Source: Octopus vulgaris (taxonomy: Eukaryota). Taken from it: a DNA stretch of 64,000 nucleotides. The DNA lies in NCBI GenBank assembly GCA_951406725.2, contig OX597815.1, forward strand, positions 115,196,001 through 115,260,000. Reading direction: 5' to 3'. This document shows, piece by piece, positions 12,638-53,467 of this stretch (its first letter is position 1; every line of letters begins with the position of its first letter). The notes beneath the pieces were generated by a model. That model had not been told where the DNA came from, ran no database searches, and saw only the letters and a list, made by a program, of their open reading frames with translations. Both the position numbers and the translations under genes were made by a program.

Positions 12638-13659
12638 TTCTAATGGCTAAGTCATTGCAGTTAGTTAATTTTAATTTGATTAACATTGGATTCATTACAA
12701 TAATCTCATGTCATGAGAGTAGTTAAGATCAATAATAGTACTATGCTACTGCTACAATATCATGAGATAGTTTTCTTTAAATACGTCTCTGTTCAAGGGG
12801 AAAAGGAATAACAGAGTTCAGAAATATGGCAATGTTTAACTCCAGATCAGATCTGATCTGGCAGAATTATCATCAAAGCCTTCCAGTTGTGGCCATCACA
12901 TTTTTTTACACATAATGTCTCTAAGTCTTAAATCATTCAGTGTCTCATTTGTTTTTATAACATGGTATTGTGTTGCTTGAGATTGATTTGGCAGATGTTA
13001 TTGTTGTTTAACCACAGGTCAGCATGAACCGAAGCAGGCTTATTCACCATTTAAGAGGTATCTAGTACTACATTATCCATTATTTCTATTGTTTTTAGGA
13101 TGGTGTGATTTGTTTTGAGAAAGATTTGATTTATTTTGTAATATTGTCGCTCACTCATTTTCATAAGATGTAGCACAAAATTTTCAAAAGGTTACAGCTT
13201 ATAACCTAATGTAGTCCAAAATGAAAATTTTCTTGATAAATTAAAATAAACATACACTGATGATTACCTGTGGATCAGTTCTAATTTACTTAGTTGATAA
13301 TTTAATATGATAATCAATAAGAGACTCCCTCTCGTTATCCTTGTTATTGCCATTGTCATTGTCCTCTTCTGCTTTGTCATTTTAGCATCCATAGTTCCAT
13401 GATTGCACGAATCAGATGAAATTCATTGAGGTAGATTTTCTACAATTGGATGTCCTTCTTATCATCAAACCATACTTTGTTTCCAAGCAAGGTAAAATTT
13501 GCCCATACCTGAACATGTTTGCATGGAAGATTGGAAACAAATTACACTACTTTGTTTGATAGCGAAACTGATTTGCAACTTTCATGCAACATCAAAACAA
13601 GGAGGTGTTTACGCACACACATGCATGTATATATATACATATATATACAAACATACATA

Positions 13660-13710
<51 letters not shown>

Positions 13711-13739
13711 TTATATATATATATATCATCATCATCATC

Positions 13740-13773
<34 letters not shown>

Positions 13774-13831
13774 ATATATATCATCATCATCATCATTTAG
13801 CGTCCGCTTTCCATGCTAGCATGGGTTGGAC

Positions 13832-14449
13832 GGTAATAATTTCTGTCGGCTTTTTTTTTTTTCGAGTAGCGTGCGTATTGTGAAAAATTATATGGTTATG
13901 GACAATATGTCCAATTTTCGGCATATTTGGCATTAGAAAATTTTTCGTTTGCCCTTATTTATAAGTTGTTTATAATTTTAACCGTTAAAGGTATTTTTTA
14001 ATATGCTGGCCATTGATAAAATTTTTTTCTTTTGAAAAAAATTTTATCCTGCATTAAATATAAATTTAAGTGTTCACTTCCGGACTCTCTCACTCTGTGA
14101 GAACCTTAGTTCAAATCGCATGTGTCTTGAATGGGCTGGAGTATTTCTATTTTGGATGTATTTGGGGTACTTAATTGTGCTCTTGACTTAGTGTTTTGCT
14201 TCTTCCATGGGTATGAGTAAGTATTTCATTTATTTCTTTGCCACATTTATCACTGATGAAGGGAGGGTTCTTATGAACTAACCCTGAAATCGGTCCGATA
14301 TGGTAATAATGGAATTTTTTAGAAATTTCTGTCGGCTTTTTTTTCGAGTAGTGTGCGTATTGTGAAAAATTATATGGTTATGGACAATATGTCCAATTTT
14401 CGGCATATTTGGCATTAGAAATTTTTTCGTTTGCCCTTATTTATAAGTT
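13832..14449 (+). mobile_element. Non-coding partial-tandem mini-element (Penelope pLTR/retrozyme-like) containing a hammerhead motif
   Basis: Near-identical terminal direct repeats 13832-13967 and 14302-14449 (period about 480 bp). A hammerhead lies just before the second repeat and the 3' end runs into (TA)n. CpGs are retained, suggesting a young insertion. Confidence 0.7.
14238..14306 (+). ncRNA. Type I hammerhead ribozyme motif
   Basis: CTGATGA (14253-59); stem II AGGG..GGTTC-ttat-GAACT..CCCT; GAAA (14286-89); short stem III T-CG-G then GTC (predicted cleavage after 14295); stem I TATC/GATA plus TTGCCA/TGGTAA around a bulge. One A-C mismatch next to the core. Confidence 0.7.
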
Positions 14450-14479
14450 ATATATATATATATATCATATATCATCTTC

Positions 14480-15400: not shown

Positions 15401-15895
15401 AAGTAATAGAAAAAGAAAATAGAGAACCTGACATATAGACATCAATTTATTTGAACATATTCAATTCCGTACAATATCAAATTCTTTGCTCCTACAGCCG
15501 TTTCCATACCCAATTAATTCAATTTGAGGAATTAAATTAAATTAATTGAAATTTTCAAATCAGATATCATTAATTGGGTATTTCTTCAGGGAAAGAATTC
15601 AATAAAAAGAGGAGCTACTTTCAATGTGTTGGTTGACCCTTGACTGACTCAGGGTCAACCAGCACACTGAGTGTAGCTCCTTTTTTATTGAATTTTTTTC
15701 CCTGACGAAATACCCAATTAACGATATTCGATATCAAAATTTCAATTGATTTGATTTAATTTAATTCCTCAAATTGAATTATTTGGTCATGGAAACAGCT
15801 GTATGAGCAAAGAATTTGATATTGTACATAACTGAATATGTTCAAATAAATTGATGTCTATATGTCAGGTTCTCTATTTTCTTTTTCTATTACTT
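15401..15895. mobile_element. About 495-bp palindrome of two head-to-head hammerhead-bearing arms
   Basis: Arms of about 240 bp; the outer ~60 bp are perfect reverse complements; centre near 15645. Plus arm: CTGACGA (15702)...GAAAC-AGCT-GTA (15792-15803). Minus arm: CTGAAGA...GAAAC-GGCT-GTA. Confidence 0.75.
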
Positions 15896-33730: not shown

Positions 33731-35229
33731 ATCATCATCATCATCATCATCGTTTAACGTCCGTTCTCCATGCTAGCATGGGTTGGACGGTTCGACCGGG
33801 GATCTGGGAAGCCAGAAGGCTGCCCCAGGCTCCGGTCTTGTTTCTACAGCTGGATGCCCCTCCTAACGCCAACCACTCCGTGAGTGTAGTGGGTGCTTTT
33901 TACGTGCCACCTGCACTGGGGCCAGGCGAGGCTGGCATCGGCCATGGTCAGATTGGTGAATTTTACGTGCCACCTGCACGGAAGCCAGTCAAGGCGGCAC
34001 TGGCTTCAGCTATGATTTGGATGGTGCTTTTTACGTGCCACCGACACGGAAGCCAGTCGAGGTGGCGCTGGCATCGGCCACAATTCGGATAGTGCTTTTT
34101 ACGTATCTCCACTCCAGGGGTCCTGGCATCTGCCAGGTGCCACTCATAGGATTGGTTCAATTTCGATTCCAATTACGATTTCGATTTCACTTGCCCCAAC
34201 AGGTCTTCGCAAGCAAAGGGGGGTAGGCATAGGTGCCTGTCGTTGGATGAGGTTCGATATCGACTTCGCTTGCCTCAACAGGTCTTTGTGTGTCCAAGGG
34301 AGGAAAGGCATGCATAAGTGGGCTGGACTCACTTGTCCTGCCTGGTCTTTTCACGCACAGCATATTTCCAAAGGTCTCGGTCGCAGGTCATTTCCTCAGT
34401 GAGACCTAAAGTTTGAAGGTCGTGCTTCACCACCTTGTCCCAAGTTTTCCTGGGTCTACCTCTTCCACGGGTTCCCTCCACTGCTAGGGATTGGCACTCT
34501 TTCACACACCTATCTTCATCCATTCTCGCCACATGACCATACCAGCGCAATCGTCTCTCTTGCACACCACAACTGATACTCCTTAAGTCCAACATTTCTC
34601 TCAGGGTACTAACGCTCTGTCGAGCATGCACACTGACATTACACATCTATCGGAGCATACTGGCTTCATTTCTCGCGAGCTTATGCATGTCCTCAGCAGT
34701 CACGGCCCATGTTTCACTGCCATGTAGCATGGCTGTTCGTACACATGCATCATACAGTCTGCCTTTTACTCTGAGTGAGAGGCCTTTAGTCACCAGCAGA
34801 GGTAAGAGCTCCCTAAACTTTGCCCAGGCTATTCTTACTCTAGCCGTTACACTTTCAGCACACCCACCCCCACTACTGACTTGGTCACCAAGATAACAGA
34901 AGCTATCAACTACTTCTAGTTTTTTCCCCTGGAAAGTGACGGAAGTTGTTTTCTGCAGATTTTTCAGAGGTTAATGCTCCCGAGCATCAGCCATATACAA
35001 AAACTATCTTCCCAGTTAGCCTTCCTTTGACATTGCTGCACCTCTTATGTGTTCATAGCTTACACTGGGTACATCTTATAGAGTTTCTACCTACACCTTT
35101 TCTACAGATCGAGCAGGGCCATCTTCCTGAAGACATTTGTGGATTGTCTACCTTCCTACTTATTAGTACTTTGGTTTTAGCTAGGTTGACTCTAAGGCCC
35201 CTCGATTCTAGACCCTCCTTCCACACCTG
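33731..35229 (-). mobile_element. 5'-truncated RTE LINE (RT C-terminus + 3' UTR + (GAT)n tail)
   Basis: ORF 34329-34646 (..RRLRWYGHVARMDEDRCVK..GTRGRGRPRKTW..) and upstream GSETWA/YLG motifs. Homologous to 40.4-41.7 kb in inverse orientation. Confidence 0.9.
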
Positions 35230-39494: not shown

Positions 39495-41746
39495 CTGGAT
39501 TGCAAGACAGTGTGTGAGAGAAAATTGTAATGTCATAGGAGAGAAATGTGTCCGCATGGATGATGGTGCACTTGCTTTTAATGATTCGGAAAAGTAAGAG
39601 GTTTGGAGAAGCCATTATGAAAGACTGCTGAACATGGAGAATGAATGGGAGGAGGAGAGCCTGCCAAATGTTGACCCAGTAGAGGGTCAAGCTATCCCAA
39701 AAGACAGCTTCCTTGTAGATAAAGCAATTAAGGGTATGAAGCTAGGAAAAGCCCCCGGTCCATCAGGAATCACTGCTGAGATGCTTAAAACATCTGGTGG
39801 TGTGGGCTATTGCCTAGTCACCCACATTGTAAACCAGGTAGTTCATGATGGAGTCATACCCAATGACTGGCGTAGCAGCACCATAGTCAACTGCTACAAG
39901 GGCAAAGGTGATGCTCTAGATAGAAATAACTACAGGGGTATCAAACTACTGGATCAGGTGATGAAGGTCATGGAGAGGGTCATAGCCCATCTCGCTAGGG
40001 ACAGAGTCTGCTTAGATGAGATGCAGTTTAGTTTTGTGCCGGGTAGAAGCACCACTTATGCCATATTCCTGGTTTGACAACTGCAGGAGAAATACATAGC
40101 TAAAGATAAACCCCTATACTTAGCTTTTGTGGACTAGGAAAAAGCCTTTGACAGGGTCCCCCAATCCCTTATCTTGTGGTCAATGCAGAAACTGGGGATT
40201 GACGAATGGTTAATAAGGGCTGTACATGCTCTATACAGAGAGGCCATTAGTAAGGTTAGGATTGGAAATGAATATAGTGAAGAATCCTGGGTATAAGTAG
40301 GGGTCCACCAAGGCTCAGCTCTCAGTCCCCTTTTATTCATCATAGTCCTCCAGGGTTGTCCCTGAGAGCTCCTCTATGCTGATGACCTAGCCCTCTTAGC
40401 AGAATCCCTACCAGAACTAGAAAAGAAAATTTGGGTGTGGAAGCTAGGTTTAAAATCAAAAGGCCTTAGAGTCAATGTAGCAAAGACCAAAGTTCTAGTA
40501 AGTAGTGAGGTGAACACATCACATACCCACTCAGGTAGGTGGCCCTGCTCGATCTATAGAAAAGGTGTTGGTAGAAACTCCATAAGATGTACTCAGTGTA
40601 AGCTATGGACACATAAGAGGTACAACAACAACAAAGGAAGATTAACCAAGAAGATAGCTTTTGTGTGCGGCAGATGCACAGGGGCAATAAACACACAGAT
40701 GCTCAGAAAACAGATTCCATCACATGCCGGAGGAAACACTAGAAGTAGTTGATAGCTACCGCTACCTAGGTGACCAAGTCTGTAGTGGGGATGGATGTCC
40801 AGAGAGTGTTACCACTAGAACAAGAATAGTCAGGGCAAAGTTCAGAAAGCTTCTACCCCTACTGGTGACTAAGGGCTTCTCATTCAGAGTGAAAGGTAGA
40901 TTGTACGATGCCCGTGTGTGAACTGCCATGCTTCACAGCAGTGAAACATTGGCTGTGACTGTGGAGGAGATTTGTAGGCTCGAAAGAAATGAAGCTAGCA
41001 GGATCTGCTGCATGTGTAATGTCAGTGTGCACACACAACAGAGTGTAAGCGCCCTGAGAGAAATGTTACACATAAGAAGCATAGGATGTGGCGTGCAAGA
41101 GAGACATTTGTGCTGGTATGGTCATGTACTATGGATGGATGAGGAGAGATGTGTGAAGAAGTACTACTCCCAAGCAGTTGAAGGAATCCGGAATAGAGAT
41201 AGACCCAGGAAGACATAGGATGAGGTGGTCAAGCATGACCTTTGAATGTTGGGCCTCACAGAGGCAATGACGAAAGACCGAGACCTCTGGAGATATGCTG
41301 TGACTGCAAAGACCCAGCAAATAAAGAGAGTTCACGGCTGAATCCTACACCAGTTTCACATAACCAGCACCATCCCATTCAAAAGTACATTGGGAAGTAG
41401 GGTAACCTGCTGTGCTTGAGGAGACCTATTGAGTCAAGTATATCAACATCAAAATGAAAATCAAATGGAAATTGTAGCTGTGATACCCGTGCGTTTGGCA
41501 CATAAAAAGCACCATCCGAACATGGCCAATGCCAGTGCCGCTTTGACTGGCTTCTGTGTCAGTGGCACGTAAGAAGTACCAACTACACCCATGGAGTGGT
41601 TGGCGTTAGGAAAGGCATCTAGCTGTAGAAACACTGCCAGATCAGACTGGAGCCTGGTGCAGTCTCCTGGCTTTCCAGACCCCGGTCAAACTGTCCAACC
41701 CATGCTAGCATGGAAAATGGACGTTAAATGATGATGATGATGATGA
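39495..41746 (+). mobile_element. 5'-truncated RTE LINE with disrupted reverse transcriptase
   Basis: GKAPGPSGITAEMLK..KGKGD..NYRGIKLL..AFVD*EKAFDRVP..GVHQGSALSPLLF..LYADDL (40375-86)..YRYLG..WYGHV..RPRKT, then the 3' UTR and (GAT)n. Several stops and frameshifts. Confidence 0.95.
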
Positions 41747-41748
41747 TA

Positions 41749-48121: not shown

Positions 48122-48330
48122 AACTATATATGGATTGTTGGTGCTTTTTTCCCTCTGTCTTCCTTTTCTTTTGAACTTCCCCTTGTCTCCTGTTTCTGAA
48201 GAAGAGCTTTGCTTGAAAAGTAAAACACCCTTTCTTTCCTTCCCTGACCATCTTATTATTACTTTACATGTACCATATCCTCACATGGTTGTTTTTTCTT
48301 GTCTTTTTTTCCTCTGTTTTTTTTTTTTTA
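48122..48330 (+). mobile_element. Short hammerhead-motif element, family A copy 3
   Basis: TGTTT-CTGAAGA-A-GAGC-TTT-GCTT-GAAA-A-GTA-AAACA (48191-48227). Pyrimidine-rich flanks homologous to 32.7-32.9k. TA tracts at both ends. Confidence 0.6.
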
Positions 48331-52114: not shown

Positions 52115-52830
52115 AGTTTTATTTTTTTTATAGCGTGCTTTCACTTCACTACCGAGCGCAGCTCTGTGTGCCTTGGGTATGTGCTGTGATTTGTTGTGAT
52201 GCTCTGATGGTTATTGTATGGAAAGTGTTCTGCGTAGGATGTGTGCAGTGCCTAGTAGTGCAATTTTCTGTATGTTATATGTGTTTGTAAGTCCTGGTGT
52301 TTTTGTTATGTATTTGTCTGAATATTTTTTATCATGCCTAATGCACCTACTATGATAGGAATTGTTTCTGTTTTCAGATTCCACATTCTAGTTACCTCTA
52401 TTTCCAGGTCTTTGTATTTTGAGAGCTTCTCCATTTCTTTTAGAGACACGTTGTCATCAGCCAGTATTGATACATCAATTAGAAAGCATTTTTTTCTTCA
52501 TGGTCTCTGACAACTATATCTGGTCTGTTGGCCTTAATTTCTCTATCTGTGTGTATCGGCATATCCCAGAGTATGGTTGCTTTCTCGTTTTCTGTGACCT
52601 TTTCTGGTGTGTGCCTATACCATCTTTTTTCTGTTGTTATTCCATAATGTTGGCATAGCTTCCAATGTATGTAGGTTCCAACTCTGTCATGTCTGTGAAT
52701 ATATTCCTTCTTAGCCAGGACTGGGCAGCTAGAGATAATATGATTTATTGTTTCTTGTCCATCTCCACATATTCTGCAGTTACTTGTAATATTTCTTTTC
52801 ATTACATGTTTTTAGTAATTTCTGGTGGGG
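52115..52830 (-). mobile_element. R4/Dong-clade non-LTR retrotransposon 3' fragment (CCHC knuckle + restriction-like endonuclease), flanked by (TAA)n; shorter copy at 53540-53730
   Basis: ORF 52479-52802: CRICGDGQETINHIISSC..YIHRHDRV..ILWDMPIHTDREIKANRPDIVV, then ..YKDLEIEV..W..QKIALLGTAHILR.. The CCHC + RHD + PD..D architecture is that of RLE-type LINEs. Confidence 0.9.
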
Positions 52831-53125: not shown

Positions 53126-53467
53126 TAGTGTTGTTTTGTTGTTGTATTATTATTATATAATTGTTCAACATTTGGCCGTTTGAGGCAAATTTCTTCATCA
53201 TCTGCTACACCTTCATGTTCCTGGGGGTGTGTGCAGCATTGTGTGTTCTCTTCTGTTGTTGGGAGTGTGCAAACCCTTCCCAGTATTGTATTGCATTAGT
53301 TTTTTTCTTTCTTGAGGTGTGGTGCAGTCTTTTGTTGTATTACTGCTTAAATTGTGTGTTGAATGTCTAATGCATTAGTTATCTAGCTTGCTGGTGGAAG
53401 TCTGAAGAGGCGGTACCATTGGCCAATGAGGTAAATCCGAGGCATGGTTATTGCTAGTTGAAAATTA

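Follow-up and report, generated by a model that had tools for sequence, protein, structure and literature searches.

In a window of 64,000 nt of Octopus vulgaris DNA, a repetitive element was found at 13832 (or 13838) to 14449, equal to about 1.3 units of a repeat of 482-486 bp. Self-alignment placed the first repeat, R1, at 13838-13967 on the + strand, and it corresponded to the part of the unit that lies downstream of a predicted hammerhead cleavage site. R1 was followed by a non-coding body at 13968-14237 (+), a type I hammerhead motif at 14238-14306 (+) with its predicted cut after 14295, and a second repeat, R2, at 14302-14449 (+), which spans +7 to +154 after the cut. At 14449 the element entered a (TA)n tract.

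The direct repeats, aligned as 13838-13967 and 14324-14449, were 94% identical over 137 aligned nt. They differed by two substitutions (13870/14352 and 13940/14422) and by 4 nt in the length of a poly-T. This confirmed the repeat-body-hammerhead-repeat layout, with a period of about 480 bp, that had been proposed in an initial annotation of this DNA. The only hammerhead motif in the copy lay outside the repeats, and no second copy of the element was present in the 64-kb window.

The element contained no ORF, as had also been stated. Its longest stop-to-stop frame was 68 aa, and a Pfam scan of 6 of its 21 listed frames gave no match to a reverse transcriptase or to GIY-YIG. The GC content of the unit was 0.32. 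The copy was rich in CpG (observed/expected 1.06, versus 0.27 for the window), but these CpGs were not all intact, contrary to what had been claimed: at 7 of the 30 common alleles in the family, a CpG stands in place of a TG or CA of the copy.

At 14109-14117 the body contained a motif resembling a Pol III B box, and the loose-end consensus of a diverged relative retained this motif with different neighbors. Such motifs occurred 18 times in the window against a chance expectation of 21, and a search for an A box gave no good candidate. The hairpin at 13958-13974, around the 3' end, did not reach significance (z 0.0).

The left flank consisted of a microsatellite of (TA)n interspersed with (ATC)n at 13628-13779 (no strand; the TA array was called at 13628-13781), and of a 55-nt LINE 3' tail at 13780-13834 on the - strand, with its 3' end pointing left. 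The tail lay outside the element and was truncated at the junction. We take it to be RTE-like. Eighteen further copies of this tail occurred in the window (best identity 54/55), and blastn tied it to the LINE sequence adjoining the RVT_1 fragment at 40366. On the right, the (TA)n target tract occupied 14450-14466 (no strand), and was followed by (ATC)n and then, starting near 14478, by a LINE tail of greater age. No target-site duplication was found around the element, and no second arm at the locus.

The LINE 3' tail was very abundant. It ended in (ATG)n and usually adjoined (TA)n, at 13780-13834 and at the 18 other sites. The copy at 13780-13834 lay head to head with the element, and the 3' ends of both pointed outward into (TA)n.

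The surrounding sequence was AT-rich animal DNA with many microsatellites and LINE fragments. Decayed LINE coding fragments with weak RVT_1 and zf-RVT matches were found at 34329-34970, 39598-41747 and 52479-52811, and a LINE 3' UTR at 33892-34110 contained subrepeats of 64-68 bp. The 5' part of U4 snRNA at 53396-53463 (Rfam RF00015, 50 bits) was joined directly to an (ATT)n tract, and looks like a truncated U4 retro-copy. A palindrome of about 495 bp at 15401-15895, with 150-nt arms that were 93% complementary and (TA)n at its right side, suggests a MITE-like or fold-back element. Neither Rfam (at the gathering score and at E up to 10) nor ARAGORN detected a tRNA.

Other copies of the element were seen as short contigs of public sequencing runs. 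The element stretch, or part of it, was present in 20 of the 24 runs listed, which came from 9 studies and 4 organisms; none of the listed runs was recorded as RNA. On one 481-bp unit, 6473 contigs from one run (X1) and 3594 from another (X3) were aligned, and 29 of 29 bins, those of the body included, were covered in both. The contigs bridged R to the body and the hammerhead to R, and at most 1 in 100 ran on into unlike sequence. This full coverage, together with the bridging contigs, indicated that the head-to-tail permutation is a trait of the family.

Thirty-five X1 contigs left the unit and entered (TA)n at the position homologous to 14449 (+154), which marked 14449 as a 3' end that recurs among family members. 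This exit was not among the six loose ends listed for X3. Contigs that aligned only in part numbered 744 and 598 in the two runs. The aligned depth dipped at 14036-14137, where the bases at which the copy differs from the majority are clustered. Summed contig depth was not taken as copy number, for which a rough floor of some hundreds may be estimated.

R1 and R2 both carried G14335 and T14337. These alleles made up 18% and 8% of the depth in X1, and 61% and 46% in X3. The sharing of alleles that are in the minority in X1 indicated that the two repeats came from one lineage.

Several candidate signals were discarded. Joints going back by about 476-481 were not taken as evidence for circles or arrays, for they follow from the repeat itself or from the position at which the reference unit was cut. 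An apparent second fixed 3' end near 14029 consisted of loose letters that proved to be element sequence after a poly-T/poly-A indel. Exact matches of 20 and 18 nt in metagenome and viral contigs (one locus each, L001 and L002) had no further similarity around them, and were ascribed to chance.

The hammerhead motif contained the elements CUGANGA, GAAA and NUH in type I order, as CUGAUGA at 14253-14259, GAAA at 14286-14289 and GUC at 14293-14295 (all +). Helices I and II were predicted to form. Stem I (14238-14251 with 14297-14306, +) had 4 and 6 pairs around a 4-nt bulge, and stem II (14260-14285, +) had 4 and 5 pairs around a 2x2 loop, so that the bulged stem I and the well-formed, extended stem II of the initial annotation were both as described. 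Stem III (14289-14294, +) consisted of one pair closing a near-palindromic loop.

The 76-nt hammerhead stretch folded at z -4.1, and none of 200 shuffles equaled it; the reverse complement gave z -1.3. Our own hammerhead descriptor matched the window at 14253 and, doubtfully, at 48196, and at least one match was obtained in 4 of 100 simulated windows. The pattern at 48196-48223 folded no better than its shuffles (z +1.2), and was probably a chance occurrence. Rfam gave no hammerhead match at the element, whether the gathering score was applied or E values of up to 10 were allowed. Such a match would concern the library, and is not among the defining biochemical features of hammerheads.

The motif had weak points that were absent from the initial annotation, namely the A2.1-C1.1 mismatch beside the cut, the A10.1-U11.1 pair at the base of stem II, the single pair of stem III, and a fold of lowest energy in which the core was paired with stem III (-24.8 kcal/mol, versus -16.6 kcal/mol when the core was left free). 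The self-dimer duplex of stem III was predicted at -3.1 kcal/mol.

Variation within the family was compatible with the motif. No variant reached 20% at the 12 core positions in runs X1 and X3, which taken alone is weak evidence, and position N7 varied. All six common variants in the hammerhead were tolerated by the motif (P 0.03). At N7 the majority base was C (77% and 75% of the depth in the two runs), which weakens the inactive helix. The earlier proposal to restore a C at 14290 did not agree with the state of the family: T is the family base there, and no variant reached 20% at 14290 or 14296. In the more diverged relatives, seen as loose ends, position 2.1 was a G, a base able to pair with C1.1.

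The unit as a whole was predicted to be highly structured. Folded as a circle, 13968-14449 was 67% paired with z -5.3, compared with -1.6 for the antisense strand and -1.9 for the lowest of 24 control tiles from the window. The predicted structure contained a 15-pair hairpin at 14015-14048, a helix of 14110-14149 with 14320-14366, and a helix of 14154-14185 with 14206-14237 (all +). The duplex between 14112-14160 and 14318-14367 joins the sequence right after the cut to sequence 140-180 nt before it. It scored -26.0, versus -14.7 +/- 3.0 for shuffled sequences, none of which reached it in 500 trials.

Common family variants were then placed on this fold. They were unphased, and came from contigs of two runs at least 80% like the copy. 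Variant 13940 was dropped because R2 already carries the majority base, which reduced the set from 30 to 29. Fifteen variants fell at paired sites, and 2 broke a predicted pair where 9.7 were expected (P 2e-4 with random placement; P 5e-5 with a null matched for CpG context). Outside the hammerhead, 1 of 23 broke a pair versus 8.1 expected (P 5e-5). On the antisense fold there were 6 breaking variants versus 8.2 expected (P 0.18). The two pair-breakers were N7 and 14335, and the latter, which breaks a high-probability pair, counts against constraint. On the predicted fold, these results support a sense-strand sequence constraint that would act on the whole unit and not on the ribozyme alone.

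We interpreted 13832-14449 as a copy, about 1.3 units long, of a repeat that is present in many copies, encodes no protein and carries a hammerhead motif, and which is most likely a non-LTR retrozyme that was likely written into (TA)n by a Penelope-type reverse transcriptase. We give this reading a probability of about three in four.

Metazoan retrozymes have been described as tandem units of 170-400 nt with type I hammerheads, a GC content below 50% and self-paired circles (PMC7229834), into which the retrozyme RNA is ligated (PMC7229834). A 2026 preprint treats retrozymes as non-autonomous derivatives of Penelope, with units of 51-972 bp, and describes monomer offspring (bioRxiv 10.64898/2026.07.22.740005). 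The present element resembled the metazoan non-LTR retrozymes in its non-coding unit, several hundred bp long, with one type I hammerhead and 32% GC, in the more-than-unit length of the copy, in the highly self-paired circle predicted for it, and in its many dispersed copies. Its weak helix III resembled that of axolotl HHR_Amex1.

The unit of 482-486 nt was longer than those of the coral, mussel and axolotl retrozymes, and lay within the range of 51-972 bp in the 2026 preprint. The copy also differed from metazoan retrozymes in its single hammerhead, in the 2x2 loop of its extended stem II, in A10.1-U11.1 and A2.1-C1.1, and in having no target-site duplication, and its cleavage and circles are predictions. 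An active retrozyme is expected to carry two hammerheads (bioRxiv 10.64898/2026.07.22.740005), where the copy has one; no array with two was seen for the family in the short contigs, which are not of a kind to reveal one. Under the scheme of the same 2026 preprint, the copy would be a monomer-type offspring. In the same preprint, 8 of 9 predicted frog retrozymes gave no cleavage in vitro (bioRxiv 10.64898/2026.07.22.740005).

Penelope-like elements provided the other comparison. A Penelope-type element has internal fixed starts of reverse transcription, AT-rich targets and protein-assisted cleavage (PMC11167929), and a bias for (TA)n and inverted truncated arms are described for Penelope-like elements (PMC8557442). 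The octopus element shared with them the partial-tandem layout, a hammerhead shortly upstream of a fixed 3' end, and an AT-rich or (TA)n target (PMC4209133, PMC11167929, PMC8557442). It also shared a long helix II, a near-palindromic helix III and, within the family, strand-switch (inverted) joints. The copy itself displayed two features of Penelope mobilization, the fixed internal 3' end at 14449 and the (TA)n target; strand-switch joints occurred in the family but were absent from this copy.

Penelope-mobilized elements are expected to have a second start with a tail of 30-40 bp as well; in the family, a single fixed 3' end was seen. Unlike the autonomous members, the element had no reverse transcriptase or GIY-YIG frame. 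Unlike their minimal hammerheads, it had neither the unpaired base between 9 and 10.1 nor the G10.1-C11.1 pair, both of which are typical of that group.

Plant LTR retrozymes are likewise non-coding, have a repeat-body-repeat appearance and carry a hammerhead (PMC7761336). They differ in having a type III hammerhead in both LTRs, a PBS, a PPT and a 4-bp target-site duplication (PMC7761336). The hammerhead of the octopus element was of type I and lay outside the repeats, no target-site duplication was present, and the flanks were a LINE tail and (TA)n.

Under the retrozyme reading, the copy may have arisen as follows. A tandem or partial-tandem source copy would be transcribed. The hammerhead is predicted to cut after 14295, and would probably do so in dimeric form or with the assistance of a protein. 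Such help is proposed because stem III has one pair and a near-palindrome, and because an inactive form predominates when the motif is folded by itself. Weak helix III has been associated with dimer-dependent cleavage (PMC4209133, PMC7229834). The unit is then predicted to form a rod in which the sequence after the cut pairs with far sequence before it, as backed by the family variation, and this would suit ligation into a circle.

A helper enzyme would nick (TA)n and begin to copy from a constant site inside the unit, at +154 past the cut. The layout shows that copying passed through one intact cut site and continued for one full unit more, so that the copy ends shortly before the following site. 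Copying may have come to a halt at +7 to +10 in the following unit, or its end may have been trimmed later, with the LINE tail joined through a 3-nt microhomology.

The evidence for this last step lies at the 5' junction. A 9-mer at 13832-13840 (+) matched 14302-14310, which is +7 to +15 after the predicted cut, and was separated from the remainder of the repeat by a gap or deletion of 16 nt. The chance of a 9-mer match within 30 nt was about 3e-4. This suggested that the junction bases probably came from the element, which would place its end +7 to +10 nt past the cut. The first three nucleotides of the 9-mer (GGT) were also the last three of the LINE tail, the alignment of which ends at 13834, and the last three (AAT) were common to the far side of the 16-nt deletion. 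With the 9-mer ignored, the conservative 5' boundary was +29. At this junction, 244, 231, 139 and 50 contigs in four runs departed into LINE sequence.

The repeat starts of 13832 and 14302 given in the initial annotation are favored by a match that is unlikely to be chance, but they depend on a single 9-mer, whose GGT also belongs to the LINE tail, and on an assumed deletion of 16 nt.

The same annotation held that the 5' end maps almost exactly to the cleavage site, and proposed as a check whether the 5' junctions of other copies cluster just past GUC. The family data seen argued against cleavage-set ends as the dominant class of 5' ends. Among 15 joints listed, 5 were strand switches, three of which were seen again in the alignment to a single unit. 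Their 10 breakpoints in other copies lay at +76 to +424, and none lay at +1 to +30. The joints were counted without regard to orientation, and 20-29 further joints lay outside the listing. One joint is situated within a palindrome and is possibly an artefact; without it the count is 0 of 8. The absence of breakpoints from +1 to +30 has P 0.001-0.004 if half of the ends lie there, which excludes such a share, and 0.11-0.17 if a fifth do, which leaves that share compatible with the data.

Loose ends gave the same picture. Among the 12 listed of 486, there was no true junction at 14296-14325 and no pile-up at the cut. A loose end at 14298 was rejected as a junction, since its median length was 13 and it reads as a diverged hammerhead.

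For the single copy at 13832, a cleavage-set end remained plausible. Uniform truncation would reach +1 to +10 in about 2% of cases, and +1 to +30 in 6%. There is a precedent in the R2 element, a retroelement in which self-cleavage determines the 5' end and in which junctions vary because priming relies on microhomologies that occur by chance (PMC3774820). R2 differs in that its ribozyme is HDV-like, that it is autonomous and rDNA-specific, and that its cleavage has been demonstrated in vitro (PMC3774820). We put the odds that the 5' end of this copy marks a cut RNA end near even.

A circle has no 5' end, so a boundary at the cut would mean a linear template at that junction. Circularization of the RNA and an end at the cut, which had been offered as one account, are thus alternatives. 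An end at the cut would imply a once-cut linear multimer, or a template jump between cut monomers.

Four other explanations were weighed, the first of which is compatible with the identification as a retrozyme. In this explanation, to which we give somewhat less than an even chance, the 5' boundary is uninformative about cleavage. It would be the scar of a later microhomology deletion or of the insertion of the LINE tail, or a stall of the reverse transcriptase at the outer helix of stem I (14301-14306), which coincides with the boundary in position. The two microhomology joints, GGT and AAT, lie 6 nt apart and flank a 16-nt deletion that is absent among the common family indels listed. The LINE tail is itself truncated at the junction, where 13 of the 18 other copies in the window extend beyond the stopping point. 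The six bases right after the cut are missing, and the lack of a target-site duplication and of a second arm is also as this explanation would have it. On the other hand, a random breakpoint would fall so near the cut only in the 2-6% of cases given above, and the R2 precedent predicts just such loose junctions (PMC3774820).

That cleavage sets the 5' ends of the family as a rule, with the 13832 copy as a record of the cut, is unlikely. The improbability of the 9-mer match by chance, the 2% expectation under uniform truncation and the variable junctions of R2 are in its favor. The breakpoints and loose ends of the family speak against it, as does the anole Poseidon element, which did not require cleavage in vitro and for which RNA reads ending at the cut were absent (PMC11167929). 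In a further reading, which we also consider unlikely, the hammerhead of a Penelope-mobilized retrozyme would cut in vivo and set the 5' ends of a minority of insertions, those for which the template was a linear multimer cut once and not a circle, and the 13832 insertion would be a chimera with two arms. Of the two broken (TA)n ends, one would have been primed on RNA of the retrozyme and one on the 3' tail of a LINE, and the resulting cDNAs would have met head to head at the 3-nt microhomology.

It is similarly improbable that the copy is a pseudo-LTR remnant, in partial tandem, of an autonomous coding Penelope-like element, and not a self-contained small RNA. The pseudo-LTRs of Penelope-like elements do carry type I hammerheads and have fixed ends shortly downstream of the cut (PMC4209133, PMC11167929). 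The dip in depth at 14036-14137 is also in its favor, and only 12 of the 486 loose ends were listed. But the dip matches the cluster of differences between the copy and the majority, and the sequence of the loose ends at 14028-14100 looks like a diverged form of the element. The bridging of R into the body, with all bins covered and at most 1 in 100 contigs running into unlike sequence, also argues against it. No coding remnant was found, and the conserved fold brings the two termini of the 482-nt unit together.

That the repeat arose by tandem duplication at this locus, with a motif that resembles a hammerhead by chance, is hardly tenable, although the initial annotation had named such a duplication as a refuting outcome: it would agree with the absence of an Rfam hammerhead match, the lack of a second copy in the window and the doubtful descriptor match at 48196, but thousands of contigs in several organisms cover the whole unit with family-wide continuity from R to body, the (TA)n 3' end recurs, and the core and fold are conserved. 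These results support a dispersed, retro-inserted, non-coding hammerhead element in place of a duplication specific to this locus.

We found no description of a cephalopod retrozyme in the literature, with the proviso that the supplements of PMC7229834 and of the 2026 preprint may list some. The words 'hammerhead' and 'ribozyme' are absent from the main text of the Octopus vulgaris repeat paper (PMC13282606). The element fits the testable features of metazoan non-LTR retrozymes. It is of a kind already known, and extends a class known from mussels.

The function of the hammerhead in Penelope-type elements has been called unclear (PMC8557442). Where a family has many copies and its 3' end is fixed, the question of its role can be addressed by counting. 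The way in which 5' ends are spread along the 482-nt unit would tell linear cut templates from circles, which one copy cannot settle. The solid addition made here is the population evidence for a sense-strand constraint on the predicted fold of the whole unit.
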